In this document: positions 29,471 to 47,990 of the stretch, in pieces | Layout of the letters: each line of letters begins with the position of its first letter | Numbering within the stretch: position 1 is the stretch's first letter | Source: Dehalococcoidia bacterium | GTDB lineage: Bacteria > Chloroflexota > Dehalococcoidia > DSTF01 > RBG-16-68-14 | DNA length: 64,000 nt | Reading direction: 5' to 3' | Assembly: GCA_040882355.1 (NCBI GenBank) | Contig: JBBEBM010000052.1 | Coordinates: 1 to 64,000 of the forward strand | Notes under the pieces: generated by a model | The model's database searches: none | Seen by the model: only the letters and a program-made list of their open reading frames with translations | Told to the model about the DNA's origin: nothing | Translations under genes and position numbers: made by a program

Positions 29471-30868
29471 ATGGCAGAAGCGAGACCAGGCACCATCGGC
29501 GAATTGCGCGCGTCGGGCTATCAGGTCGCCTCCGTCAAGGAGGAGTTGCGCCGCAACCTGATCAACAAGATCCAGACGAAAGCCGACCTCCTGCCTGGCA
29601 TCGTCGGGTACGACGAGTCGGTGATCCCGGCGCTGGAGAACGCGATCCTGTCCGGCCAGGACATCATCTTCCTCGGCGAACGCGGACAGGCCAAGTCGCG
29701 CATCATCCGCACGATGGTCGCCCTGCTCGATCAAGAAGTGCCGGTCATCTCCGGCTGCGAGATCAACGACAACCCATACGAGCCGATCTGCAAGCGCTGC
29801 CGTGACCTGATCGCCGAACAGGGCGACAGGGTCGCACTCGACTGGCTGCCGCGCGAGCAACGTTACGGCGAGAAGCTCGCGACGCCGGACAGCACCATCG
29901 CGGACCTGATCGGCGAGGTCGACCCGGTGAAGGTGGCCGAGGGCCGCTACCTGAGCGACGAGTTGACGATCCACTACGGCCTGATCCCGCGCACCAACCG
30001 GGGCATCTTCTGCATCAACGAGCTGCCCGACCTGGCCGAGCGTATCCAGGTGGGCCTGCTCAACATCATGGAGGAGCGCGACGTCCAGATCCGGGGCTAC
30101 CGCATCCGGCTGCCGCTCGACGTTTTCCTCGTCGCCAGCGCGAACCCGGAAGACTACACGAACCGCGGGCGGATCATCACGCCGCTGCGCGACCGCTACG
30201 GCGCGCAGATCCGCACCCACTACCCGCGCAGCGTCCACCACGAGATCTCGATCATGGACCAGGAGCGCAAGCGCTTCGACGACGACTACCACGTCGTCGT
30301 GCCCGAGTACATGAAGGAGATCGTCGCGGAGATCACGCGACTTGCCCGCCGCAGCCCGGACGTCAACCAGCGCTCCGGCGTCTCGGTGCGCGCCTCGATC
30401 GCCAACTACGAGAGCCTGCTCGCGAACGCGATGCGCCGCGCGATCCGCCTCGGCGAGACGGACGTCGTGCCCCGCATCAGCGACCTGCCCTACGTCATCC
30501 CGGCGCTCAGCGGCAAGGTGGAGCTGGAGACAGTCGAGGAAGGCAAGGACGAGCAGATCATCGAGAAGCTGATCCAGGGCGCCGTCGTCGCGGTCTTCAA
30601 CCGCTACCAGAACGTCGTCGACCTGGAGGACGTGGTCACGCGCTTCAAGAGCGGCCTCTCCGTCGAAGTCTCCGACATGCTCCCTTCGAAGGAGTACATC
30701 AAGATGGTGAAGCAGGTCGACGGCCTCGATCGCGCCGTCGCGAAGCTGGAGCCGGGCGAGAACCTGGCCGTCATCGCCTCCGCCGTCGAGTTCGTCCTCG
30801 AAGGGCTCCATCTCAACAAGCGGCTGAACAAGGACCGCACCGGCTCGCGCACGCAGTACCGCGGCTGA
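29471..30868 (+). CDS. AAA+ ATPase, Mg-chelatase-like (Rv0958 type)
   Basis: Walker A GERGQAKS, GIFCINELPDL, ASANPEDY; paired with the VWA gene. Confidence 0.9.
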   Translation: MAEARPGTIGELRASGYQVASVKEELRRNLINKIQTKADLLPGIVGYDESVIPALENAILSGQDIIFLGERGQAKSRIIRTMVALLDQEVPVISGCEINDNPYEPICKRCRDLIAEQGDRVALDWLPREQRYGEKLATPDSTIADLIGEVDPVKVAEGRYLSDELTIHYGLIPRTNRGIFCINELPDLAERIQVGLLNIMEERDVQIRGYRIRLPLDVFLVASANPEDYTNRGRIITPLRDRYGAQIRTHYPRSVHHEISIMDQERKRFDDDYHVVVPEYMKEIVAEITRLARRSPDVNQRSGVSVRASIANYESLLANAMRRAIRLGETDVVPRISDLPYVIPALSGKVELETVEEGKDEQIIEKLIQGAVVAVFNRYQNVVDLEDVVTRFKSGLSVEVSDMLPSKEYIKMVKQVDGLDRAVAKLEPGENLAVIASAVEFVLEGLHLNKRLNKDRTGSRTQYRG

Positions 30869-31038
30869 CGCCAGAAGCTTGCCGCCAACAACAATGGCCG
30901 CCCGGGTTCGCTCGGGCGGCCTTGCTGTCCCGCAGTCGCCTGCTGATTGAGTACGCACCTGAAATCGGGGCCCTGCGCGCTTCCCAAGGCGGTATAATGG
31001 AGGCCGCATTGAGGTAGCGCCTGAGGAGTGATGTAGAC

Positions 31039-33210
31039 ATGGTGGCTTTTCGGTATTCAGAATGGGACGGCACGCAGGAGATCCCCCCGCTCGATCCGGA
31101 CGACGTGCTGGAGGCGCTCACTGACGACCTGATGAACTTCGGCGACCTGCAGCACGCGCTGCGCAACCTGCTCCAGCGCGGCATGCGGAACCCCATGGGC
31201 CAGCGCATGCAGGGCCTGCGCGACCTGCTGCAGCAGCTCCGTCAGCAGCGCCGCGGCACCCTCGACCGCTACAACCTCAGCTCCGCCTTCGAAGACATTG
31301 AGCGACGGCTGGAGGAGATCCTCGATCAGGAGCGCTCGACCCTCGACCGGCGCCTGGCGGAGTCGGACCAGCCGCAAGGCGACGCCTCGGCCGGCGAGCC
31401 GTCCGAAGGCTCGCAGCCGTCCGCAGGCTCTTCTGAGGGCGCTCAGTCTCCTGAGGGCGCACCGTCGCAGGCGCAGGCGTCCGGCCAGCAGCAGAGTGGC
31501 CAGGGCAGCGAAGGCGCCCAGGCCGGTTCGTCATCGCAGGGCGGAAGCGACCAGGAGCAGTTTGCCCAGATGCTGCAGAACATCGCGCAGCGCAAGCAGC
31601 AGTTCCTGGAAGGCCTGCCGGAGGACATGCCGGGCAAGATCAAGGAGCTCCAGAACTACGAGTTCATGGACCCGGAGGCGCAACACCAGTTCCAGGAGCT
31701 GATGGAGATGCTGAAGAAGGCGATGATGGAAACCTTCTTCAAGGACATTCACCAGCAGATCGCGAACCTCTCGCCCGAGGACCTGGCGCGCATGAAACAG
31801 ATGGTGCGCGACCTCAATCAGATGATCTCAGAAAAGATGGCCGGCGGCGAGCCGGACTTCGACCAGTTCATGCAGCAGTACGGCGACCTCTTCGGGCCGA
31901 ACCCGCCCCAGTCGCTCGACGAGCTCATTGCCCAGATGCAGCAGCAGGTCGCTGGCATGCAAAACCTGCTCGACAGCCTCCCCGGCGACATGCGCCAGCA
32001 GCTCCAGGACCTCCTGATGGACAAGGTCGGCGACCCGGACCTCCAGGGTGAGCTGGCCGAGCTGGCCGCGAATCTCGAGTTCATGTACCCCATGCGCGAC
32101 CTGCGCAACCAGTACCCCTTCCGCGGCGACGAGGAGCTCGACCTCAACGAGGCGATGCAGCTCATGGACCGCATGCAGTCGATGGACGAGCTGGAGCGCC
32201 AGCTCGAGCGCACCCAGTACGGGGGCGACATCGATGACATCGATCAGGAGAAGCTGGAGGAGCTGCTGGGCAAGGAGGCGCGCGAGACGCTCGACCAGAT
32301 CCGCCAGTTCCTGGAGATCCTTGAAGAAGCCGGTTACATCCGGCGCAAGGGGAACACCTGGGAGCTGACGCCGCGCGGTACGCGGAAGATCGGCCAGAAG
32401 GCGCTGGGTGAGATCTACTCCCGGCTACGCAAGGACGCCTTCGGCAAGCACTCGCTCCGCGACGCCGGCACCGGTGTAGAACGAGCGGACGACACGAAGA
32501 AATACGAGTTCGGCGATCCGTTCCACCTGTCGCTCGACCGCACGATCATGAACGCCCTCCAGCGCGAGGGCCCCGGCGTGCCGGTGAAGGTGAACAAGGA
32601 CGACTTCGAGGTCTACCGCTCGGAGCAGCTCACGCAAACGGCGACGGTGATGATGGTCGACCTCTCGTGGTCGATGGCGCTGCGCGGCAGCTTCCAGGCG
32701 GCGAAGAAGGTGGCGCTGGCGCTACACAACCTGATTCGCACACAGTTCAGCCGCGACAGCCTCTACATCATCGGCTTCTCCGCCTACGCCCGCGAGCTGC
32801 AGGCGGAGGAGCTGCCCTACGTTCGCTGGGACGAATCGGTGCTGGGGACGAACATGCACCACGCGTTCATGCTCGCGCAGCAGCTCCTCGCCCGGCACAA
32901 GGGCGGCACGCGCCAGATCATCATGATCTCGGACGGCGAGCCGACAGCGCACCTGGAGCGCGGCCGCTCCTACTTCGCCTACCCGCCCAGCCCGATCACG
33001 ATCCGGGAGACGCTGAAGGAAGTGCGCCGCTGCACGAAGAAGGACATCACGATCAACACCTTCATGCTGGACCGCAACTACTACCTCAAGGAGTTCGTGA
33101 ACCAGGTCGCGAAGATCAACAAGGGGCGCGTCTTCTACACCACGCCCGACAAGCTGGGCCAGTACATCCTGGTCGACTACGTCGCGAACAAGCGCAAGAA
33201 CATCCGGTAG
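31039..33210 (+). CDS. VWA domain-containing protein (Rv0959 type)
   Basis: FRYSEWDG start; MIDAS DLSWSM...TN...ISDGEPTAH; low-complexity Q/S/G insert. Confidence 0.9.
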   Translation: MVAFRYSEWDGTQEIPPLDPDDVLEALTDDLMNFGDLQHALRNLLQRGMRNPMGQRMQGLRDLLQQLRQQRRGTLDRYNLSSAFEDIERRLEEILDQERSTLDRRLAESDQPQGDASAGEPSEGSQPSAGSSEGAQSPEGAPSQAQASGQQQSGQGSEGAQAGSSSQGGSDQEQFAQMLQNIAQRKQQFLEGLPEDMPGKIKELQNYEFMDPEAQHQFQELMEMLKKAMMETFFKDIHQQIANLSPEDLARMKQMVRDLNQMISEKMAGGEPDFDQFMQQYGDLFGPNPPQSLDELIAQMQQQVAGMQNLLDSLPGDMRQQLQDLLMDKVGDPDLQGELAELAANLEFMYPMRDLRNQYPFRGDEELDLNEAMQLMDRMQSMDELERQLERTQYGGDIDDIDQEKLEELLGKEARETLDQIRQFLEILEEAGYIRRKGNTWELTPRGTRKIGQKALGEIYSRLRKDAFGKHSLRDAGTGVERADDTKKYEFGDPFHLSLDRTIMNALQREGPGVPVKVNKDDFEVYRSEQLTQTATVMMVDLSWSMALRGSFQAAKKVALALHNLIRTQFSRDSLYIIGFSAYARELQAEELPYVRWDESVLGTNMHHAFMLAQQLLARHKGGTRQIIMISDGEPTAHLERGRSYFAYPPSPITIRETLKEVRRCTKKDITINTFMLDRNYYLKEFVNQVAKINKGRVFYTTPDKLGQYILVDYVANKRKNIR

Positions 33211-33242: not shown

Positions 33243-34085
33243 GTGGCGAACACTCCAGCATCCTGGATGCTCCAGGCGAACCCCAAGACGTTCAATCTAA
33301 ACCGTGCGCTACAAGCGTACAAGGAAGTGACTTGGCTCGTGCAGGCTCATGCCTCGAGGATCAAGCCAGGAGATACGGCCTTCATCTGGCGATCGGGGCC
33401 GGAAGGTGGCATCGTCGCAGTCGCCGAGGTGTTGACAGTCCCGCAGGAGTTTCCGGCCAATCCGCCAGCGCACAAGGGATTCTATCGAGATCCAACCAAG
33501 TTTGAGGGCCTCCGGCAGCGGGTGCGGATCCGGATCACCGACGTGCTGGACGAACCCATCTACCGGAAGGACCTCAAAACGCACCCGCTTCTTTCTGACC
33601 TAGCCATTTTGAGTTCACCGGAGGGCACCAATCGGGCCGTAACCGAAAGACAAGCAAGTGCGCTGGAGGAGGAATTACGATCACGTCTGGGCTCCGCGTG
33701 GCGACTCCCGTCAAGCGCGGCGGCAGATTACGATACCCCGGAGTTCTCCGAAGGCCGGCTAGCTGAGCGCAAGCATCAGACGCGTGAGCGAAATGATCGG
33801 GTCGCGGTCGCAAAGAAGCGGGACGTGCTGGGGCGGGGAGGTTGCCTGGGGTGCGAGGTGTGTGGCTTCGACTTCCCGTCCGCGTATGGCACTCTTGGAG
33901 CAGGGTCTGAGGTCCACCACCTTGTTCCGGTGTCCGCCTGGCCCCCCGGCGAACGCAAGACACGCCTCGAAGACTTGGCGGTCGTGTGTTCCAACTGCCA
34001 TCGAATGCTTCATCACATGAAGCCTTGGCCGTCGGTAGCTGATCTCAAGCACCAGATGCGCCACGTGAGCAGGCGCGGCGCGTAG
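33243..34085 (+). CDS. EVE domain-HNH endonuclease (putative modification-dependent restriction enzyme)
   Basis: N-terminal EVE-like W..QANP.....W......IKPGD.AFIW.SG...GIVA; C-terminal McrA-like CEVCGFDF...EVHH...VCSNCHRMLH; lower GC. Confidence 0.85.
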   Translation: MANTPASWMLQANPKTFNLNRALQAYKEVTWLVQAHASRIKPGDTAFIWRSGPEGGIVAVAEVLTVPQEFPANPPAHKGFYRDPTKFEGLRQRVRIRITDVLDEPIYRKDLKTHPLLSDLAILSSPEGTNRAVTERQASALEEELRSRLGSAWRLPSSAAADYDTPEFSEGRLAERKHQTRERNDRVAVAKKRDVLGRGGCLGCEVCGFDFPSAYGTLGAGSEVHHLVPVSAWPPGERKTRLEDLAVVCSNCHRMLHHMKPWPSVADLKHQMRHVSRRGA

Positions 34086-34089
34086 CCCG

Positions 34090-34503
34090 CTACCCCTCGA
34101 AGTCGCCCTCGTAGAGCTGGAGAAGGACGCCTCCCGAGTCACGCGGGTGAACGAAGACCTCCTTGTACGGCCCGTGCTCGCGTCCGCCGAACGGCTCGTA
34201 GCCATACTCCTTCAGGGCAGCCGTAGCCTTCGCGACGCTCTCCACCTCGAACGTGACGTGGTGGAAGCCCGAGCCGCGCTCGCTCAGGAATCGCGTCAGG
34301 AAGCTGCTCTCGTCGCAAGGCTCCAGCAGCTCCCACTGTGTGCCGCCGCCGGGGATGTCCAGCGTAGCGCCGTTGTAGCCGGCAATGGGGTTCGACCAGC
34401 GGCCCAGGAGCTTCATGCCGAACAGCTCCGTCAACATCGGGAGCCGGTCGTCCAGCTTCGGGACCACCATGCAGATATGATCGATGCGCTTGATGCCGAG
34501 CAC
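34090..34503 (-). CDS. VOC family protein (methylmalonyl-CoA epimerase-like)
   Basis: IDHI, ELLEP, RG.GFHHVTFEV, FVHPRDSGGVLLQL. Confidence 0.88.
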   Translation of the reverse strand: MLGIKRIDHICMVVPKLDDRLPMLTELFGMKLLGRWSNPIAGYNGATLDIPGGGTQWELLEPCDESSFLTRFLSERGSGFHHVTFEVESVAKATAALKEYGYEPFGGREHGPYKEVFVHPRDSGGVLLQLYEGDFEG

Positions 34504-34602
34504 TCGCTCCTCCTTCTGTAAACAACGCTACGATTATATGAGGACGGTGTATTTGAGAACAGGATAATACGGTTAACTTGGTGAAACCGGCTTCGAAACC
34601 CC

Positions 34603-34630
34603 TTGACACAGATAGGAATCGTGGTAGTAT
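34603..34630 (+). promoter_or_regulatory. sigma70-like promoter upstream of the riboswitch
   Basis: TTGACA-N16-TAGTAT with extended TG, in an AT-rich intergenic segment. Confidence 0.65.
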
Positions 34631-34696
34631 GTTATTGTAATCACAATCACGGATGAGCCCGGCAGGTCATCCACGCTCCTTGTAAAGGGAGGCACT

Positions 34697-34805
34697 CTGC
34701 CGAATCCGCCCAGGAACGGGGGACCCACCACAGTTGGGGTGAATCTCGCGCCAGCGAGTAGGGCAAGCCTTTCCGCCCGAACCCGTCAGCTAACCCCGGA
34801 GGCAG
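34697..34805 (+). ncRNA. cyclic di-AMP riboswitch (ydaO/yuaA class)
   Basis: Conserved blocks in the expected order: GCCGAATCC, GGAACGGGGGACCCA, GGGGTGAAT, CCCGAACCCGTCAGCTAACCCCGGAGGC; closing pair ctgcc/ggcag. Confidence 0.92.
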
Positions 34806-34851
34806 CCGAAAGGCCAGGCACGGTTTGCTCGCAAGCATGGAGGAGGGTCAC

Positions 34852-35064
34852 ATGATGCCTAACGTCGCCTTGCCCCGGATTTGCCCCCGCTGTCGTGGCT
34901 CCATGATCCCGGAGCGCGACTGGTATGGCGAGTACAGCACGTGCCTGTGCTGCGGCTACGTTCACGAGGCCGTCTCCACGCCGCCCATCGAGCTGCTGGA
35001 GGAAGAGGAGAACGGTCAGCGCCAGCGGCGCCGCCAGCCCTCGCACGGCAAGATCCGGCTCTAG
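34852..35064 (+). CDS. small Zn-ribbon protein (70 aa) under riboswitch control
   Basis: GGAGG RBS; CPRC...CLCC; acidic then basic tail. Confidence 0.8.
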   Translation: MMPNVALPRICPRCRGSMIPERDWYGEYSTCLCCGYVHEAVSTPPIELLEEEENGQRQRRRQPSHGKIRL

Positions 35065-35279
35065 ACCAGCGCCGCTCGGCCGCAGCTCCGTTTTCTGGCT
35101 TTCCTTACCCGATACGATTCTGTATCTGGGAACAGCCTGAGCCCCCTTTCCACCTCGGTAAAGGCAACCTCCCCCTCCTGCTCCCCAGTTCCCACTTCAC
35201 CAGCCCCATCGCCGCGCCCAAGAGCGCTCTAGAGGCTCCCCACGCCTCTAAGGAAATAAGGGAGTCCGCCTAGGGCCCG

Positions 35280-35294
35280 TCAGGGTTCTCCCTA
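35280..35294. promoter_or_regulatory. 15-bp imperfect palindrome (candidate NarL/LuxR-type operator)
   Basis: TCAGGGTTCTCCCTA, about 25 bp upstream of a TACAAT -10 box (35319-35324); similar sites at 38645, 46094, 53997 and 54010. Confidence 0.5.
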
Positions 35295-35377
35295 ATGGAG
35301 CGCCTCCTGCTGCGGGCGTACAATCCCCTCGTCAGCAAGTGATGGCCTCCTGAAACGAGGCCCGGGAGAGGAAGATC

Positions 35378-35623
35378 ATGGCACGCAACAAAGCCACAGT
35401 CTGCACCCACCGCTGGATGCTCGGGAACCCCGGCTTCCGGCAGGTGCGCGGCGTATGCCGTCGCTGTGGCGCGCGCAAGATCTTCCCTTCGGGGCTTGAG
35501 ATCATGCAGGTCAAATCAGAGTTCGAGGAGCTGGCCGCCAGCCACCCAGTCTTCCCCGCGGGATCGGCGCCCCCGGAGGAGACCGTCTACGTTCAGGGTT
35601 GGCGCGCCGTCAGCTTGTCATGA
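35378..35623 (+). CDS. small putative Zn-finger protein (81 aa)
   Basis: GAGG RBS; CTHRW...CRRCG metal-binding pattern. Confidence 0.7.
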   Translation: MARNKATVCTHRWMLGNPGFRQVRGVCRRCGARKIFPSGLEIMQVKSEFEELAASHPVFPAGSAPPEETVYVQGWRAVSLS

Positions 35624-35696
35624 GGAGATTGGTGTGGTAGCGTCGCCGCAGGACGAGACCCATCGGTCGATTGTGACTAGCGAAGGAGCGCACCCA

Positions 35697-36485
35697 ATGC
35701 AGCCAGCTAACCCCTCACGCACGCCCGCCACACGCTCTAAAAGCGTCGCCGAACGGCCGGGGTGGACCCGCGCCAGCGCCCAGCGCATTCGCGTCCTCAT
35801 CGTGGACGACCACGCGATCCTCCGGCAGGCCCTCCGGCAGTTGCTGGAACAGGAGCAGGAGCTCGAGATCGTGGGCGACGCCGCCAACGGGCGCGATGCC
35901 CTCGTCTGCGCCGAGAAGCTCCAGCCCGACGTCGTCCTCATGGACATGGTGATGCCCGGCCTGAACGGGCTGGAGGCGACGCGCCAGATCCGAAAACGCT
36001 TCCCCAAGACCCGGGTGCTCATCCTCACCGGCTACATGGAAGACGAGCAGATCCTGGGCGCCCTGCGCGCCGGCGCTTCCGGCTACGTCGTGAAGCGCTC
36101 CGACACGGAGGAATTGCTGCTGGGCATTCAGGCGGTGCACCGCGGCAACACTTACTTCAGCTCCACCATCTCAGATGGCGATGCCATCAACCAGTTCCTC
36201 TGGCAGGCGAAGAAGGAAGAGGGCAAGGTCGGCTACGAGTTGCTCACCAGCCGCGAGCGCGAGGTTCTTCAGCTCATCGCCGAAGGCTACTCCAACCAGC
36301 GCATCGCGCAGGAGCTCTACATCAGCGTGAAGACCGTGGAAGCCCACAAGGCCCACATCATGAGCAAGCTGCACGCCCGCAACCGCACGGACCTGATCCG
36401 CTACGCCCTGCGCAAGGGCCTGGTGGGTCTGGACGCGCCGCCGGACGTGCCCGACGAACAGCAGGAGACGCTGCAGGCGGGCTGA
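35697..36485 (+). CDS. NarL/LuxR-family response regulator
   Basis: IRVLIVDDH, DVVLMD, LT, YVVK; HTH LTSREREVLQLIAEGYSNQRIAQELYISVKTVEAH. Confidence 0.96.
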   Translation: MQPANPSRTPATRSKSVAERPGWTRASAQRIRVLIVDDHAILRQALRQLLEQEQELEIVGDAANGRDALVCAEKLQPDVVLMDMVMPGLNGLEATRQIRKRFPKTRVLILTGYMEDEQILGALRAGASGYVVKRSDTEELLLGIQAVHRGNTYFSSTISDGDAINQFLWQAKKEEGKVGYELLTSREREVLQLIAEGYSNQRIAQELYISVKTVEAHKAHIMSKLHARNRTDLIRYALRKGLVGLDAPPDVPDEQQETLQAG

Positions 36486-36515
36486 TCGATTGATCTGCCG
36501 CGCAGCCGGAGGACT

Positions 36516-36791
36516 ATGGAACAGACGCCCTTCGCCGAAGCATCCCTGTCGGACGCCAAGCCCGTTTCATTGCAGGGCGTCTACCTCAGCCGCCTCCAGC
36601 GGCTGCTCCGGCTGCGCCGCCGTCACGAGCACGAACTGAACGGTCAGGGCATCCTCCTGCTCGACCGCTCCATCTTCGCCGCCTACTGCGACTGCATCGA
36701 AGTCGGCGCCGACGAGAAGGCGCGCAGCGTCCTCCGCAGCGCCAACTTCCCCCTGAACGACGACCCGATCGCCGGCGGCCAGGCCGCCTGA
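36516..36791 (+). CDS. hypothetical protein (91 aa)
   Basis: GGAGG RBS; GC3-rich; lies within the operon. Confidence 0.75.
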   Translation: MEQTPFAEASLSDAKPVSLQGVYLSRLQRLLRLRRRHEHELNGQGILLLDRSIFAAYCDCIEVGADEKARSVLRSANFPLNDDPIAGGQAA

Positions 36792-36804
36792 CCAGGAGCG
36801 ACCC

Positions 36805-37179
36805 ATGGCAACGATCCTCGTCGTGGACGATGAACCCGCCATTCGCGCCTTCGTTCAGGCGGCCCTTCAGCAGGCGAATCACCGCGTGCTGGAGGCGGGC
36901 GACGGCTCAAGCGCCCTCCGCGTGGCCTCCGCCGAGCAACCCGACCTGGTCCTGCTCGACATCGCCCTGCCTCACCTGAGCGGCATCGAGGTGTGCCGCC
37001 AGCTTCGCCGGGAGCCGGACACATCACGCACGCCCGTTCTGTTTCTCACCGGCTTGCCCGACCAGGGCGCCCAGGACACGGCCGGCTCCGGCGCGCAGGG
37101 CTACCTGGCGAAGCCGTTCAGCCCCGGGCAACTCATCTCACGAGTGGACGATGCGTTGCGGCTGACGCAGATTCAGTAG
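36805..37179 (+). CDS. single-domain response regulator (receiver only)
   Basis: ILVVDDE, DLVLLD, FLT, YLAKPF. Confidence 0.93.
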   Translation: MATILVVDDEPAIRAFVQAALQQANHRVLEAGDGSSALRVASAEQPDLVLLDIALPHLSGIEVCRQLRREPDTSRTPVLFLTGLPDQGAQDTAGSGAQGYLAKPFSPGQLISRVDDALRLTQIQ

Positions 37180-37224
37180 CCGCCAAACAGCCTGGCAGCT
37201 TCCCGGCCGCCTTTGTTCTCCCCC

Positions 37225-37252
37225 TCACGATAGCCATTCCCCCTGCCGATAC
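37225..37252 (+). promoter_or_regulatory. candidate sigma-28 (FliA/WhiG) promoter for csrA
   Basis: TCAC-N16-GCCGATAC against the consensus TAAA-N15/16-GCCGATAA. Confidence 0.45.
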
Positions 37253-37373
37253 TTATCCAAGCCAGCGATGATGGGGTATCACCCCGCCATCGACGCTTGT
37301 TCTGCGGCGTTCGCAGAGGAGACGGGCTGTCGCTCGCTCCTGGCGGCCGGCGCCGAGAAGCAAGGAGAGCCAG

Positions 37374-37625
37374 ATGCTGATTCTGACAAGGAAGATCGAC
37401 CAGGGGATCGTAATCTCGGGCAATATCTACGTCCGTGTCCTGGGCGTGGAGCGCGATCGGGTGAAGATCGGCATCTCGGCCCCGTCCGAGATCACCGTGC
37501 TCCGTCAGGAGCTGCTCGACCCGGACCGGAAGCCCCGCGGGGAGGTAGAGGGCCAGAATGCCGGCGCCAACGGCGGAAGGGCCGCGCCCGTGGTGGGAAA
37601 CGAGGAAGTGGAAAAAGAAGACTAG
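37374..37625 (+). CDS. csrA: carbon storage regulator CsrA
   Basis: MLILTRK..Q.I.I..NI.VRVL.V..DRVKIGISAPSEITVLRQEL. Confidence 0.95.
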   Translation: MLILTRKIDQGIVISGNIYVRVLGVERDRVKIGISAPSEITVLRQELLDPDRKPRGEVEGQNAGANGGRAAPVVGNEEVEKED

Positions 37626-38608
37626 CCGGCCACCAGCGTGAGCGCCGGGCGCGCACGCTTCGCGGAACTCGACTTGCCGCCGCCCTGAATCACCGTGAGG
37701 GGCGGCGGTTCTGCGTCCCGGGACGTCGCCGGCATCCGCATCGTTCCGCCGAAGCTCATCGACTGCCGGGCCGCCCACCAGAGGCCGGCGGCCTGCGCCC
37801 AGCGCTCGCCGTTGCCGAAGGACGCGTCGCGATCGGCGACGGCGCGGAGGAAGCGGCGGCACTCTTCCAGCAGCGGGTCGACCGCCGGCTGAGACAGGCC
37901 GGGTACCGGCGCCGCGAGCTCGCCATCGCCGGTGATACGGAGCGTAGCGACCGTGTGCGGGTCGTCCAGGACAATGGTGTGTTCGGCGGTTACGGCTACG
38001 ATCTGGTCGACGCTGGTCGCCTCAGCAAGGCTCACCGTGGCTTCCACGGGCGGGCCCTCCGGCTGCTGAAGCAGGAGGAAGACAGCGCACGGCTCGCCAA
38101 CGTGGTCGCGACGGCTGGCGGCCGCCGTGACGGAACGCGGTGTCTCCCCCAGCAGGGCGAGACACGTCGCCAGCTCCTCCGCCGCCAGCTCATCGATGCG
38201 CCGCGGGCCGTCCGCCGGTGCCGTACGGAGCAGCCGCAGATAGAGCGGCCGCCAGAACGGCTCGTCGCCTTGCAGAAGACGCTTGAGAAAGGCGAATCCC
38301 GGCTGGTGCTGGAACGGCTCGGCGAAGCGAAGCTGGGCGCCCTGTCGCCGGCTCACCTCAACCAGGACGTTCGTCTGCCACGGGCTCAGCGTGAAGGGGG
38401 CGCCGTAGAGCACCGCCACGCCGTTCTGTAGCGCCTCCTTCGCCCGCGCGAACGGGTCGACGGCGCACGGAGCGATGACCAGCGCATCGGCTCCCGGCAG
38501 CTTCTCGATCGACCGGCAGACGCGCGCGAACGGGCGCAAGACGCGCGCCCAGCGTTCGGAATCGGCGCCCTCGCCGAGCAGGACAACTCGAGTGCGGTGA
38601 TCGCTCAT
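37622..38608 (-). CDS. degenerate Gfo/Idh/MocA-like oxidoreductase-fold protein
   Basis: The overall pattern (DALVIA...AKEAL.NGVAVL..PFTL...; C-terminal DPL.EECR.FL.AV) fits the family, but GxGxxG and EKP are not intact. Confidence 0.65.
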   Translation of the reverse strand: MSDHRTRVVLLGEGADSERWARVLRPFARVCRSIEKLPGADALVIAPCAVDPFARAKEALQNGVAVLYGAPFTLSPWQTNVLVEVSRRQGAQLRFAEPFQHQPGFAFLKRLLQGDEPFWRPLYLRLLRTAPADGPRRIDELAAEELATCLALLGETPRSVTAAASRRDHVGEPCAVFLLLQQPEGPPVEATVSLAEATSVDQIVAVTAEHTIVLDDPHTVATLRITGDGELAAPVPGLSQPAVDPLLEECRRFLRAVADRDASFGNGERWAQAAGLWWAARQSMSFGGTMRMPATSRDAEPPPLTVIQGGGKSSSAKRARPALTLVAG

Positions 38609-38710
38609 AGGGACAGGATAACGATGCCTAGGGAAGCTGACTCTTGGGGAATGCCCTGAGGTGTGGCGGGAAACGTCCTCAGGCGAGCGGCGAGCCGCCC
38701 TGATTTCGGA

Positions 38711-39715
38711 TCAGGCGGCGTCCTGCAGCTCCTGCGTCAGAGCCGTGCGCAGCCGCCGGATGGCCCGGTGGCGGAGCTGCGAGGCGCGCGATTCCGAGAT
38801 ACCGAGCGCCCGCCCGATGCTCTTCAGCGAGCGAGACTGCATGTAGTAGAGCTGGACGATGGCCCGCTCGCGGTCAGGGAGCTGGTCTACCGCCTCGTAG
38901 AGCTTGTGGCGTACCATGGTGTCCTGGGCGCGAGTGTCGGGGTCGATGGTGGGGTCCTCGTCCGCCATCTCCCAGAGCTTCTCGGTCTGACCGTTCACCG
39001 CCGTCTCCGCCAGGCCGTCGAGCGAGATTACGTGGATGTTGCTGGTGCGGAGCGTGGCCAGAAAGTCCTGGTGCGAGAGGCCCATCTGGTCCGCCAGCTC
39101 GGCCTTGGTCGGTGACCGGCCGAACCGGACGTGGAGGGCGGCGCTGGCGCGCTCCACGTCGCTCGAGAACTTCTGGAGCGAGCGGGGCAACGGATGGGCC
39201 GCGCGCAGAGCGTCCAGGATCGCGCCCCGGATGCGCGGCAGGGCATAGGTGGAGAACTTGGCGCCCCGGTTCGGGTCGAACGCGCGGTAGGCCTCGATCA
39301 GGCCCTGCACGCCGCAGCTAATCATGTCTTCGTACTGGAGGATGCCGGCGCCCGTGGAGCCGACCGCGATTCGATTGACGGCGTGCCTGACAAGCGGCAT
39401 GTAGTCCTGGATCACCTTGCCCAGGTCAGCATCGATCTGGTGCGGGCCCTCGTTGGCGTGGATCGGAATGGGCGTGACGTCAGCGCTCGGAGTCGGCGCG
39501 CCCTTGACAGCGGCTGGCTCCTGTTTCTTGCGGGCGCGAAGCGGGATGGGCTTTCGGCCGGCGCCCTTGATTGGGGCGCCGTTGGCGAGTTGCGGCTGCT
39601 GCTTCTTGCGGACACGAAGCGGAACCGGCTTGCGGTTCGCGCTCGTAGTCTTACGCCGGACCCCGGATCGGGGCTGAGCACCTGTTGAGGCGCCCTCGGC
39701 ACGAAGAGAGGGCAA
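38711..39715 (-). CDS. FliA/WhiG-family (sigma-28) RNA polymerase sigma factor with basic N-terminal extension
   Basis: YMPLVR, GLIEA...FDPNRGAKFSTYA.PRIRGAILD.LR, GRSPT..ELA, LKSIG..LGISESRASQL; proposed TTG start 5 nt after GGAGGT. Confidence 0.92.
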   Translation of the reverse strand: MPSLRAEGASTGAQPRSGVRRKTTSANRKPVPLRVRKKQQPQLANGAPIKGAGRKPIPLRARKKQEPAAVKGAPTPSADVTPIPIHANEGPHQIDADLGKVIQDYMPLVRHAVNRIAVGSTGAGILQYEDMISCGVQGLIEAYRAFDPNRGAKFSTYALPRIRGAILDALRAAHPLPRSLQKFSSDVERASAALHVRFGRSPTKAELADQMGLSHQDFLATLRTSNIHVISLDGLAETAVNGQTEKLWEMADEDPTIDPDTRAQDTMVRHKLYEAVDQLPDRERAIVQLYYMQSRSLKSIGRALGISESRASQLRHRAIRRLRTALTQELQDAA

Positions 39716-39944
39716 GTTGCACCTCCGATATCTATGCCGGCGGGTTGGGTCACCCGATGGACAGGTCGTTTTCCGTTCGTCTGTGACAGTATCGCTGGAT
39801 ACCCGATGCCTTCCTATGCGGAGAATCCCCAAGCCGGGCTCCAGGGCGACCCTAGAACGAGCGCTCACATCCCCGACGCGTCATCGGGCGGTTTGCGTAT
39901 CTTGCGAGGCAGGCAGGAGAATGGGAGGCGAACGGAGGACCTAC

Positions 39945-40349
39945 GTGGTTGGCAACTGTCAGATCAAGGGCCGCTTTCGCGCGTGCGGGAAGCCGGGCGC
40001 CGCCGTCTGCCAGTACTGCGGGCGCAGCTTCTGCCCGGCGCACGGCGTCCGCCTGGACGACGCGCAGGAGATCTGCGCCCGCGCGACATGCCAGGCGAAG
40101 AAGGCGGACGTCGAGCGCTTTGCCGTCTACAAGCGGGAGGTCACCGAGCGCAACGAACGGCGCACCTGCGGCGAGCCCGACTGTGTGTCAGCGCCGGGCG
40201 GCCAGTGCTCCAAGTGCCAGGGCCTCTTCTGTATGGGACACCTGTCGGAACGCGAGATCGACCAGTGGCAAGACGGGTCAATGGCGCGCGTTCGTGGCGT
40301 CCTTTGCCCTCATTGCGTCAAGCGCCGCGGGCTATGGGAGCGGGGGTAG
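39945..40349 (+). CDS. Cys/His-rich double zinc-finger protein (AN1/B-box-like)
   Basis: GTG after GGAGG; CQYCGRSFCPAH and CSKCQGLFCMGH plus extra Cys pairs. Confidence 0.8.
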   Translation: MVGNCQIKGRFRACGKPGAAVCQYCGRSFCPAHGVRLDDAQEICARATCQAKKADVERFAVYKREVTERNERRTCGEPDCVSAPGGQCSKCQGLFCMGHLSEREIDQWQDGSMARVRGVLCPHCVKRRGLWERG

Positions 40350-40358
40350 GACGGCATT

Positions 40359-40383
40359 GGGCGGGTCTGAGACCCGCCCCTAC
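40359..40383. repeat. GTAG-type REP element between convergent genes
   Basis: gggcgggtct-g-agacccgcccctac. Confidence 0.7.
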
Positions 40384-40438
40384 ACATGGCCCTCCGGTCA
40401 GACTCCAGGCTGAAGCCTAGCCTTCGGTAGAAAGGGTG

Positions 40439-41212
40439 CTACCACGCCCCCCTGGGCGCGCCGCTCTCGACGCCTTCCCCGGCGAGGTGGGCGTGGAGGA
40501 ACTCGCGGACGCGCTCCATCGCCTCGCGCGGCACGGCCGTGTGGCCGCCCGGGTAGAAGAAGACCCGCTTCGGACCGGAGAGGGCGTCGTAGAGCTGGAA
40601 GGCCGACTCTCGCGAGAAGATCTCGTCCTCCGTTTGGTTGATCATCAGCACGGGGCGCGTGATCGTGCGCGCGGCCTCCGCGAGCCCTCCCGGCCGGTTG
40701 CCGATCACGCCGCCGATGGCGAAGACGGCGCAACGGAAGCGCTCCTCCGCAGCGACGGAAGGCACACCCAGCACCGTGCCCATTGAGAAGCCCAGATACG
40801 CGGCCCGGTCGATGCCCACGTCCGGCAGCTCGGCGCACGCGTCGACGGTGCGCTGCCAGTCGACAGCCATCGCGTCGTACGTCTCGCGGTCCGTCAGCAC
40901 CTCGCGGGCGCGCAGACCCACCTGTTCGACGCCTTCCGGACGCCGTTCGCCGTGCACAGGGCCATCGATAACGGCGACAGCCCAGCCCTCGCGTCGCACG
41001 AGCCAGCGCGCGATCGACTGCATCTGCGGCTCGTCCTTCGAGCCGCCCGCGCCGTGCCCGAGCATGATGACCGGTCGCGGCCCGCTGGCGTCCTCAGGCG
41101 TGAGCACGAGCGCCGGCACGCGCCGGTCTTCGGACCCGGCGATCCACAGGTGCCGGGTGCTGACCCCCTTCTCCGTCTGGGGCCGGCCGAGTTCCAATAT
41201 CGCGTTGCTCAT
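40439..41212 (-). CDS. alpha/beta hydrolase (dienelactone hydrolase-like)
   Basis: GHGAGG, GFSMG, EDE, PGGH. Confidence 0.88.
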   Translation of the reverse strand: MSNAILELGRPQTEKGVSTRHLWIAGSEDRRVPALVLTPEDASGPRPVIMLGHGAGGSKDEPQMQSIARWLVRREGWAVAVIDGPVHGERRPEGVEQVGLRAREVLTDRETYDAMAVDWQRTVDACAELPDVGIDRAAYLGFSMGTVLGVPSVAAEERFRCAVFAIGGVIGNRPGGLAEAARTITRPVLMINQTEDEIFSRESAFQLYDALSGPKRVFFYPGGHTAVPREAMERVREFLHAHLAGEGVESGAPRGAW

Positions 41213-46093: not shown

Positions 46094-46134
46094 GAGGGGT
46101 TACCCCTATAGTCATCTCCTTAGGCGGAGGCGAT
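46094..46134 (+). promoter_or_regulatory. 15-bp palindrome (46094-46108) overlapping a candidate sigma-28 promoter (46107-46134)
   Basis: GAGGGGTTACCCCTA; TATA-N16-GGCGATAA. Confidence 0.4.
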
Positions 46135-46181: not shown

Positions 46182-46826
46182 ATGGTCCAGCAAGCCAGCA
46201 ACCCGGAACCCTCGATCGCCCTGCACGAAGAGCTCGACTTCGCCCTTCGCACGCTGGAGTCGTGCCTCGCCGAGGCCGGCCGGGCCGTCTCGGCCGTGCG
46301 CAGCCTGCTGCCGCGCATCGCCTCGTTGAGCGAGGCCGTCGGCGAGCTGGAGACCGCGATGGACCGCGCGCGCCAGCGCCTGAGTGCGTCGCCCGCCTAC
46401 AGCGCCCCCACGTCGCAGCCTACGCTTTCACCCGTGCCGCCATCGCAGCCGCCCGTAGAGTTCCCTACACCCGCGCCCTCCTTCACGCCGGAGCCAGCAC
46501 CGTCCTTCGACGACACTTCACAGAGCGAGGATGACGAGCCGGCCTCGAGCAAGACCCCGTCCCACTGCCTGCGGCTGGACGTTCGCAGCAAGAGCGGCTC
46601 GCTTGAGCTGAAGGCCGTAGACGACGCGGTCAACGAGAACACCTCTGTCGTCGACGTGGCCCTCCTGGAGTACGACGGCCGCAACGCGACCCTGCGGGTT
46701 TGGATCGAGACCTCGGCCGACCCCGAGACCGTGCGCGAGGCGCTGCTGGACAGCCTGCAGCGCAACCTGGCAGGCCACCAGGACGCGGACGTCACCCTGG
46801 ACTACGAGCAAGCGCCGGCCGCTTAG
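46182..46826 (+). CDS. hypothetical protein: coiled coil, Pro-rich linker, small alpha/beta C-terminal domain
   Basis: AAGGAG RBS; heptad-like N-terminus; ends QAPAA. Confidence 0.8.
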   Translation: MVQQASNPEPSIALHEELDFALRTLESCLAEAGRAVSAVRSLLPRIASLSEAVGELETAMDRARQRLSASPAYSAPTSQPTLSPVPPSQPPVEFPTPAPSFTPEPAPSFDDTSQSEDDEPASSKTPSHCLRLDVRSKSGSLELKAVDDAVNENTSVVDVALLEYDGRNATLRVWIETSADPETVREALLDSLQRNLAGHQDADVTLDYEQAPAA

Positions 46827-46916: not shown

Positions 46917-47990
46917 CTAGGCCGCCGCTTCGCCGGACGCGGCTGCTTCGAGCAGGCGTCGCTCGGCAGTCGCGACCAGCTCCTCGGCGGTCGCGCCGTC
47001 TTCGGGCATGGTGGCGGTGGCGCAAGCGATCTGGACGCTCAGGTCCTGCATGTCGGTATGAGGCAGCGTGACTGTCTCCAGGCTGGCCAGGAGCCGGCCT
47101 CTGGCGATCTCGGCGCCCTCCTGCTCTGCCTCCACCAGGATCGTCGCGAAGCCGTCCTCATGATAGGCGCCCAGGAAGTCGGTGTCTCGCATCGCGTCGG
47201 TCAGCCGGCCCGCCACCTGGCGCAGCACTCGCTCGCCCAGGAAGCGGCCGTAGCGCTCGTACAGCTCGGCCAGATTGACTACGCGCATGAACACGACGGA
47301 GAGCGGGCGGTCGTGGCGCTCGGCGCGCCGGATCTCCTGCGCGAGCTGCTCGACGAAGCGGCGCTCGTCGTGGACCCAGCGGACGGCGTCCAGCTCGCCC
47401 TGCTTTCGCCCCATCTCCTCTTCGCGCACATTGGTGAGCGCGACGGCGACGTGGCTGCCCAGCAGCTCCGCCTGCTCAAGCGTAGCGGGGGGCTTCGCGG
47501 GCAGCAGCAGCAGCAGCAGGCCCTGGCTCTCGCCGCGCCATGCGAGCGGAGCCAGCCACGCCTGGGCGACGCCCAGCGAGCGCTTCGCTTCGTCGACCCG
47601 ATCAGGGTCGATCGTCAGCGGTAACACGGCGGCCAGGTCGTCGTAGGCGGTAGCACGCCCGTCCCGCAACGCCGCAGCGTACGCGGGGCGCTCGCCAGGA
47701 TCCAGCGTCAGCGCCGAAAGCTCGGTCCCAAACGCCTGGTGCACCTTCGTCAGATGGCGCTTGCGCTCGCTGGAAGCGGGGCGTTGGGCGGTCAGCTTCT
47801 CGGACGAGTCCATCAGGAACAGGAATGTGTAGAGGGCGCCCAGGCCCCGTTCGGCGGCGGTGCTCACCGCGTCGGCCAGCCACGAGACGTCCTGCGCGCT
47901 GTGGACCGCCAACAGCGATTCCAGCAGCGGCGAGACGATCGTCTCGACGGCCGAGCCTTCCTGCGTCTCCTGGTGCTTCTTATTCAGCAT
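46917..47990 (-). CDS. GAF-like plus degenerate GGDEF protein (putative c-di-GMP receptor)
   Basis: EIRRAERHDRPLSVV, ERYG...G..VLRQVA..L...MRDTD-FLGAY-HEDGF; RxxD I-site intact, active site degenerate. Confidence 0.8.
   Translation of the reverse strand: MLNKKHQETQEGSAVETIVSPLLESLLAVHSAQDVSWLADAVSTAAERGLGALYTFLFLMDSSEKLTAQRPASSERKRHLTKVHQAFGTELSALTLDPGERPAYAAALRDGRATAYDDLAAVLPLTIDPDRVDEAKRSLGVAQAWLAPLAWRGESQGLLLLLLPAKPPATLEQAELLGSHVAVALTNVREEEMGRKQGELDAVRWVHDERRFVEQLAQEIRRAERHDRPLSVVFMRVVNLAELYERYGRFLGERVLRQVAGRLTDAMRDTDFLGAYHEDGFATILVEAEQEGAEIARGRLLASLETVTLPHTDMQDLSVQIACATATMPEDGATAEELVATAERRLLEAAASGEAAA

Follow-up and report, generated by a model that had tools for sequence, protein, structure and literature searches.

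We analyzed a stretch of 64,000 nt (the window) from contig JBBEBM010000052.1 of assembly GCA_040882355.1, the genome of a Dehalococcoidia bacterium that we call G000 (93.9% complete, 3,129 called proteins). It carries a cluster of regulatory genes that includes a cyclic di-AMP (c-di-AMP) riboswitch, a NarL-type response regulator, csrA, and a sigma-28 gene. This cluster is probably the regulatory remnant of a Dehalococcoidia flagellar cluster, kept after the structural genes were lost and running a cascade from the regulator to sigma-28. It is best read as a pilus and cyclic di-GMP (c-di-GMP) lifestyle circuit that outlived the flagellum, not as a dormancy switch. We base this view on comparisons of gene content, gene order, orthology, and conserved DNA motifs, from which the mechanistic steps are inferred. 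The original prediction for this DNA had proposed a dedicated lifestyle or developmental switch, and its bearing on lifestyle is supported; the predicted outputs are Tad pili, HD-GYP enzymes, and csrA.

The riboswitch and the nine open reading frames (ORFs) of that prediction are present in the order and places it gave, as judged from an Rfam covariance model for RNA and the ORF list. Family scans of the window proteins with Pfam and NCBIfam uphold the identities of the NarL-type regulator, the receiver-only protein, CsrA, and the FliA/WhiG-type sigma factor. None of the four small proteins Zn1, Zn2, U91, and ZnZn or the Gfo-like ORF (gfo) reaches a curated cut-off in these scans, and all four small proteins have conserved homologues in relatives. 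The genes are contiguous and ordered as claimed but cannot be a single operon, with csrA and gfo convergent and the sigma gene and ZnZn divergent. Flagellin, FlhA, FliW, and FlgM have no match anywhere in G000, so that the partners FlgM and FliW of both the FliA-FlgM and the CsrA-FliW switch are without a match. The lack of FliW, flagellin, and an anti-sigma factor of the FlgM type, reported for the window, holds for the genome too, but that of a kinase does not: a hybrid kinase that flanks the sigma gene in relatives, in many of them divergently, has a match elsewhere in G000 (C17:95715-98207; 50% identity over 641 amino acids [aa]). In all, G000 has three csrA genes and two sigma-28 genes, sigA in the window and sigB on contig C47.

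A conserved, dedicated regulatory cluster without flagellar genes is what we see in G000 and in the 61 genomes searched from the order of Dehalococcoidia that holds it (hereafter the order, with samples of up to 61 genomes). Flagellin was found in 0/61 order genomes and FliW in 0/7, and a FliA/WhiG-like sigma factor is present in 18/18 genomes examined; these sigma and flagellin tallies, like that of cpaB below, include genome G244, which none of our claims depends on. The gene order is conserved as DUF3870-Zn2-narL-U91-HK-REC-csrA><gfo (HK, histidine kinase; REC, receiver) in order loci L126 and L130. Among 80 Zn1 loci of relatives, 23 have narL, csrA, gfo, and sigma within 10 kb, and 22 of these also have Zn2 and U91; the remaining loci include short contigs, family f4, and more distant relatives.

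The origin of the cluster is suggested by flagellated genomes of the same class. We compared 45 class genomes outside the order, chosen mostly for a FliA/WhiG-type sigma, of which 34 encode flagellin. A narL orthologue directly precedes the flagellar operon flbD-motAB-fliL-fliM/N-fliOPQR-flhB-flhA-flhF-PilZ-fliA (assigned with Pfam) in 9 of 14 flagellated genomes (G015, G099, G134, G199, G006, G010, G195, G210, and G026), a count that omits G007, G065, G108, and G177, whose regions are ended by contig ends. Beside this flagellar-linked narL stand riboswitch-Zn1, Zn2, U91, or a receiver. Riboswitch-Zn1 heads the flagellar region in six genomes (G015, G099, G134, G199, G195, and G210), Zn2 lies ahead of narL in G006, G195, and G210, and U91 is found after narL and before flbD in G010 and before HK-REC-flbD in G006, with Zn1 and U91 matches 12-17 kb from fliA. 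The region of G006 starts with genes for DUF3870, HD-GYP, Zn2, narL, U91, a kinase, and a receiver, continues with 27.8 kb of flagellar and chemotaxis genes, and ends with csrA facing a twin-tailed Gfo-like gene beside flagellin. Removing its structural block yields the gene order of the window, L126, and L130. The csrA><gfo pair also lies on flagellin contigs of both G006 and G010, and csrA is part of a flagellar or chemotaxis cluster in G006, G010, G195, G210, G026, G065, G007, and G002.

These genes of G006, G010, and G015 have the window genes as their best G000 matches, and the receiver preceding flbD in G006 has its best match in the receiver-only protein. The window regulator is 64-75% identical to the flbD-linked regulators of G015, G006, and G010, compared to 36-40% for other NarL-type proteins of G000, and its copy nests among flagellar-linked copies in the regulator tree. 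The PAS kinase of G006 aligns with the order kinases at 34% identity over 206 aa only, and orthology is not established. Given this shared gene order and orthology, the window cluster very probably goes back to the two end sections, head and tail, of the flagellar cluster of Dehalococcoidia. The text of PMC10284905 infers flagella to be ancestral in Dehalococcoidia and lost in basal orders, which fits a remnant. As separate observations, the chemotaxis genes just before csrA in G006 (L339) resemble cheC, cheD, cheY, cheB, cheR, and cheX by sequence appearance, and two genomes without flagellin, G168 (L293; riboswitch-Zn1-narL-fliA) and G030 (L187; fliA-csrA-narL-like), look like separate flagellum losses in which regulators were kept.

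The regulator operon opens with Zn2 (35378..35623, + strand), an 81-aa protein with a CxHxW..CxxC pattern (alignment A6) that has two paralogues in G000. It is followed by the NarL/LuxR-type response regulator (35697..36485, + strand) with REC and GerE domains (PF00072 and PF00196), which is 72-90% identical across families; its alignment contains the DD, D, T, and K residues that we take to form the phospho-acceptor pocket. The third gene, U91 (36516..36791, + strand), encodes a 91-aa three-helix protein of no known family that was found in 33/34 order genomes. Its structural model (predicted local distance difference test, pLDDT, 79) has no clear fold match, with a fold search giving uninformative similarity to unrelated helical bundles (best Z 7.5), and a role as the anti-sigma factor RsiG was ruled out by the absent RsiG motif. 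The operon ends with the receiver-only response regulator (36805..37179, + strand; PF00072).

Upstream alignments reveal a palindromic box, AGGG-N4-CCCT, that is preceded by a half-site at ~22 bp and followed, ~20 bp on, by a sigma-70-like -10 element; this layout is found ahead of Zn2-narL, sigA, and gfo. We scored it with a matrix trained on 17 Zn2 promoters of other genomes against a background of 1,852 G000 upstream regions. The copy before Zn2-narL (35281..35324, + strand), which is conserved in Zn2 promoters, is the top match of the genome. The copy before gfo (38615..38658, - strand), also present in family f1 loci, scores in the top 0.9%, and the degenerate box and -10 element before the sigma gene (39788..39830, - strand), conserved across families, reaches 5.7 and the top 8%. 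With this matrix, 8 of 10 flbD upstream regions contain a box in the top 0.5% of the background. Boxes also mark the narL promoters in flagellated genomes, the upstream regions of the f5 cluster sigma (3/3), and those of second sigma-28 genes (non-FliA paralogues) of some flagellated genomes, in families f29 and f33. The box is enriched before sigA, where 19 of 41 copies exceed the 95th percentile, the window copy not among them; before sigB, 0/16 do. A matrix trained on flagellar sites lifts the window sigA copy above the 99th percentile, but it is not independent because its sites were chosen with the first matrix. The box is a candidate site of the NarL-type regulator, and its placement suggests a regulator-to-sigma-28 cascade. 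A wider box regulon in G000 was rejected as too weak (11 genome-wide matches vs. 4 per shuffle). One further copy lies at window position 46101 before an unnamed 214-aa gene (46182-46826, + strand) that faces a GGDEF gene (46917-47990, - strand), and both genes flank the cluster in family f1.

The orphan sigma-28 gene sigA (38711..39715, - strand) encodes regions 2, 3, and 4 (TIGR02479, 198.1 vs. a cut-off of 189.6). Its most likely start is TTG 39715, giving ~334 aa, where a Shine-Dalgarno sequence and TTG are conserved in its family. Across families, SigA proteins are 64-83% identical. That it might be an ordinary flagellar FliA, a caveat of the original prediction, is contradicted by phylogeny, which puts it outside the flhA-linked FliA clade, and by the lack of flagellar genes in G000. 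Trees were built from 57 rows and, with FastTree, also from 110 rows. In the 57-row tree, sigA forms its own clade (99/100 support) outside a 19-row flagellar FliA clade, and it is 35-42% identical to flagellar FliA. Its grouping with sigB and second sigma-28s of some flagellated genomes is weak (85/85). An approximately unbiased (AU) test marginally rejected a single clade of sigA with FliA (p=0.043), for a group that was named after viewing the tree and with long branches present. The second gene, sigB, heads a block (C47:74769-78928, L059) in which it is followed by a MASE9/HD-GYP gene that has a sigma-28 promoter, a GGDEF gene, and a gene for an unnamed Cys-rich protein (family F7), and this block recurs in most order genomes examined. 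Separately, the second sigma-28 of family f19 (L177-L186) comes from the FliA clade and has genes for a response regulator and a kinase behind it; this sigma is kept also in two genomes without flagellin.

The predicted targets of these sigma factors can be read from promoters. The window csrA (37374..37625, + strand; PF02599, 67.9 bits) is preceded by a sigma-28-type promoter (37224..37252, + strand; -35 TCAC, -10 GCCGATAC), and the strict -10 motif occurs in 35/36 upstream regions of the csrA family, with 0-1/36 for each of six control motifs. The other two csrA genes of G000 (C42:76494-77244 and C36:18723-18956), one of them directly before an extracytoplasmic function (ECF) sigma gene, lack the motif within 200 bp. 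Promoters of the type TAAA-N15-GCCGATAA are conserved in the order, with motifs that stay fixed while the flanking intergenic DNA is unalignable; the genomes hold two sigma-28s, and either may be the reader. The motif fits the FliA/WhiG consensus given in the texts of PMC8325347 and PMC13595943, where WhiG targets include type IV pili and c-di-GMP enzymes.

Scanning G000 for this motif returned 29 of 1,892 genes vs. 7-18 for control motifs. Full-consensus sites include the Tad pilus operon cpaB-cpaE-cpaF-tadB-tadC (C2), a GAF-HD-GYP gene (C4), and csrA. Three of the nine HD-GYP genes of G000 have a site, all among the six with an upstream gap of their own (3/6, p=6e-5), as do 10/19 HD-GYP genes in loci of relatives. 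The Tad gene cpaB is present in 60/61 order genomes. We sampled 71 of 111 listed cpaB matches (the 30 best, another 40 in list order, and G000's own), and 25 have a sigma-28 site 20-250 bp upstream, whereas control motifs gave 1-2. In the cpaB tree, the site is carried by 24/25 members of the f1, f4, f79, and main f3 branches, which form the lineage to which the cpaB of G000 belongs; elsewhere, it was found in 0/14 for f2, 0/3 for a second f3 branch, and 1/29 for other paralogues. The pilus link to sigma-28 looks inherited rather than newly gained because, with a relaxed motif, the best cpaB locus carries a site in 5/18 flagellated genomes and 3/3 f5 genomes. Sigma-28 promoters before the other genes were considered and dismissed as not conserved (Zn1 0/82, Zn2 1/33, narL 2/37, sigA 4/36, sigB 0/24, and ZnZn 0/14). 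Apart from the Tad operon, a solo gene without Pfam match (C31:2983-3198, L158), which we take to be Flp-pilin-like from its pilin motif, has a sigma-28 -10 motif 69 bp upstream.

The riboswitch (34688..34819, + strand) matches RF00379, the c-di-AMP (ydaO) aptamer, with 95.6 bits vs. a gathering score of 38 and is the only Rfam match in the window. It lies in the 5' leader of Zn1, 32 nt ahead of the gene, behind a sigma-70-type housekeeping promoter (34603..34630, + strand; 10/12 consensus matches) that is the sole such site within 34400-40500 and is kept in the family alignment. Zn1 (34852..35064, + strand) encodes a 69-70 aa zinc ribbon protein (CxxC..CxxC) with an invariant basic tail at its C-terminus (alignment A1). 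Its 357 homologues are unnamed or weakly auto-named, with no reliable family name, and include strong matches in 34/34 order genomes and many class genomes; the titles of relatives in 80 GTDB records are almost all Dehalococcoidia, Chloroflexota, or Chloroflexia. ESM Atlas matches of both U91 and Zn1 fall into unnamed clusters only. The riboswitch is directly upstream of Zn1 in 73/80 loci of relatives. No terminator-like site was found between aptamer and Zn1 in the window, and Shine-Dalgarno access appeared unshifted when leaders were folded (13/34 parsed, 21 not). A c-di-AMP input to the circuit, as originally proposed, is indicated for Zn1 only, because the next operon, Zn2-narL, has its own promoter. 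G000 has five c-di-AMP riboswitches and one diadenylate cyclase (DAC) gene; what follows the other four riboswitches (L002-L005, on C13, C42, C74, and C4) is a low-GC stretch lacking a clear ORF, a short ORF resembling a receiver, a small ORF resembling a lipoprotein, and a Thr/Pro-rich protein that looks secreted.

Convergent on csrA and downstream of sigA, gfo (37622..38608, - strand) has no Pfam match, but its predicted model matches the two-domain Gfo/Idh/MocA fold (Foldseek E 8e-17, template modeling [TM] score ~0.72). Oxidoreductases of this fold usually carry the NAD(P)-binding cofactor motif GxGxxG and the catalytic motif EKP. These are found in 2/36 and 0/36 family members, and the protein is a probable pseudo-enzyme. 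Its family is present in 17/18 order genomes. In almost every locus, gfo comes right after sigA, and the two reading frames often touch. The G006 protein has no BLASTP match in G000 and is linked to the family by profile (E 2e-20) and tail. Twin hydrophobic motifs in this C-terminal tail (35/36 and 34/36) are of the L-x-hydrophobic type and resemble LKxh, described in the text of PMC7226468 as the ClpX-docking consensus in the XBR-like peptide of SspB/RssB-type adaptors. A ClpX-like gene is present in G000. It is a plausible if doubtful guess that the Gfo-like protein has the role of an anti-sigma factor or protease adaptor; a complex prediction with SigA scored 0.00 and weighs neither way. 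A role as FliW replacement was rejected because G006 and G010 carry both the Gfo-like gene and FliW.

From these data, we propose the following circuit. The NarL-type regulator would be phosphorylated, perhaps via the receiver-only protein, by a kinase that is probably the hybrid one found next to the sigma gene in relatives. The regulator would then bind the GGG-N4-CCC box and activate the weak sigma-70 promoters of Zn2-narL-U91-REC and sigA-gfo. The same box would drive the flbD-mot-fli-flh-fliA operon in flagellated relatives, which makes the regulator a candidate flagellar master regulator there, a role that rests on linkage (9/14) and shared box (8/10). A sigma-28 (SigA, its paralogue SigB, or both) would transcribe the non-flagellar arm, i.e., the Tad pilus operon, HD-GYP c-di-GMP phosphodiesterases, and csrA, and c-di-AMP would control Zn1 through the riboswitch. 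Its probable effect is to switch how the cell attaches to surfaces and its c-di-GMP state. We tentatively put forward a bolder version that we consider somewhat unlikely in its entirety: the NarL-type protein would be the master regulator of Dehalococcoidia flagella, with an operator that can be defined, and would work together with three unnamed small proteins, one of them c-di-AMP-controlled, and after flagellum loss this hierarchy would run Tad pili and c-di-GMP turnover via a replacement sigma-28 whose level is set by the Gfo-fold pseudo-enzyme, as anti-sigma factor or protease adaptor, instead of FlgM.

Several observations weigh against a remnant that runs such a cascade. SigA is not the flagellar FliA itself and has no flagellar operon around it, and the box before the window sigA is weak with the independent matrix. 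Linkage and symmetry are the sole grounds for assigning the box to the regulator, and it was missed before flbD in G026 and G141. The module is absent from the operon head in G047, G003, G048, and G141 and lies elsewhere in G056. Only ~15 sigma-28 sites of G000 exceed the background, and family f2 has kept both sigmas without any cpaB site (0/14). Family f4 has the cluster broken up over three loci, and the locus of G305 no longer contains narL and gfo. Finally, the compared genomes are related and not independent samples.

The strongest competing explanation takes the module to be a master circuit for lifestyle or the cell cycle in general that predates its link to flagella. Flagella would then be just one output among several, and the window would hold the intact core. 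This is favored by riboswitch-Zn1 and U91 in genomes without FliA/WhiG-type sigma above the cut-off (G025, G105, G123, and G157), by the Tad sigma-28 sites already present in flagellated genomes, and by boxes before the non-FliA sigma-28 paralogues of f29 and f33. However, one contiguous flagellar block of G006 has csrA><gfo at one end and Zn2-narL-U91-REC at the other, and the window brings these ends together; we regard an older core as unlikely; it differs from a remnant mainly in the direction of history.

Even less probable is a WhiG-type switch that, as in Streptomyces, would govern dormancy or differentiation. The best PDB sequence match of SigA is indeed a Streptomyces-type WhiG (E 3e-42), and the TcrA and FliA sigmas of Actinoplanes couple flagella with sporangium formation and dormancy, according to the text of PMC13083903. 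Against this, the predicted targets are pili, HD-GYP genes, and csrA rather than sporulation genes, and the c-di-GMP contact residues of WhiG, given as K57, G61, and R62 in the text of PMC8325347, align to R/N/R in SigA and do not preserve the triad. The RsiG motif E-x3-S-x2-R-x3-Q/H-x3-D has one match among the 3,129 G000 proteins, inside a 509-aa protein and in no small one. With parts that descend from a flagellar cluster as well, the stand-alone new switch of the original prediction finds no support. That the genes are a decaying leftover without common function, with motif matches as inherited noise, might be read from G305, the split f4 cluster, and the f2 cpaB promoters but is very improbable in light of the identities of SigA and regulator across families and of promoter motifs fixed amid unalignable DNA.

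Other features of the window and genome were recorded alongside. ZnZn (39921..40349, + strand), a double Cys/His-rich protein with invariant Cys/His residues (alignment A7), is only loosely linked (within 10 kb of Zn1 in 11/80 loci), was not seen in the flagellar loci examined, and gave the single match, weak and unnamed, of a PHROGs search. An AAA ATPase-like and vWA-like gene pair (29471-33210; named from sequence appearance) adjoins the module in the window, in L040 and L042, and next to riboswitch-Zn1-narL in flagellated G056. Between the vWA gene and a VOC gene, a gene with EVE domain and HNH endonuclease (33243-34085), which we take to be possibly a modification-dependent restriction gene, is inserted and was not found in related loci. 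In several families (L038, L041, L289, and L301), Zn1, Zn2, and U91 are accompanied by DUF3870 and a small gene of ABM-like type. Elsewhere in G000 (C54:62259-66760, L174), a pair of short, nearly identical peptide genes lies next to asparagine-synthase-like and PqqD-like genes and, by sequence appearance, looks like part of a lasso-peptide cluster. One soil RNA run matched 0.06 of words, with contigs mostly <90% alike, and counts as evidence of neither transcription nor habitat.

We found no description of this cluster in the literature covered, which excluded most subscription journals, and candidates for novelty are the unnamed master regulator, its operator, and the small proteins. A named candidate and DNA site for flagellar gene control would thereby become available in a phylum for which the texts consulted describe none, and four protein families without names gain a context, as does a probable pseudo-enzyme. 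The cluster may be a clear example of a control hierarchy that has survived the machine it served, and conserved promoters still show which targets remain. It also connects the head of a motility region with a c-di-AMP riboswitch and, if the NarL-type protein is truly the master regulator, would tie c-di-AMP to the top of the motility hierarchy.

Among known systems, the DegU/SwrA to SigD hierarchy of Bacillus similarly has a NarL-type regulator that activates a class II operon ending in sigma-28, with csrA in the flagellar cluster (CsrA-FliW-flagellin), but G000 has no FliW or flagellin. The Dehalococcoidia flagellar cluster 3 of PMC10284905 appears to match the flbD-mot-fli-flh operon headed by the module, and the text of that study names no master regulator, box, riboswitch, or small proteins for it. 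By its description in PMC13083903, the TcrA-FliA1-3 system of Actinoplanes missouriensis resembles the proposed circuit in that a response regulator switches on flagellar units together with several genes for sigma-28, and more than one such paralogue occurs per genome, as in G000. It differs in that the organism is flagellated and the circuit controls sporangia, and its text leaves a riboswitch, CsrA, and these small proteins unmentioned. In non-flagellated Legionella, flagellar regulators likewise outlive the flagellum (as described in the text of PMC5655016); there, FliA and FlgM are kept, whereas G000 has kept the regulator module, csrA, and two other sigma-28s with FlgM, FliW, and flagellar FliA gone. 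WhiG regulons of Rubrobacter and other actinobacteria are alike in that, in cells that do not sporulate, a sigma-28 is predicted to express type IV pili and c-di-GMP enzymes from FliA-type promoters, but c-di-GMP arms the anti-sigma factor RsiG there (texts of PMC8325347 and PMC13595943). The Dehalococcoidia circuit has no small RsiG-motif protein and no K-G-R triad, and it involves Tad pili in a different phylum. Judged by its genes and promoters, it belongs to neither the FliA-FlgM nor the WhiG-RsiG system and resembles both regulator-to-sigma-28 hierarchies and the pilus and c-di-GMP regulons of WhiG.

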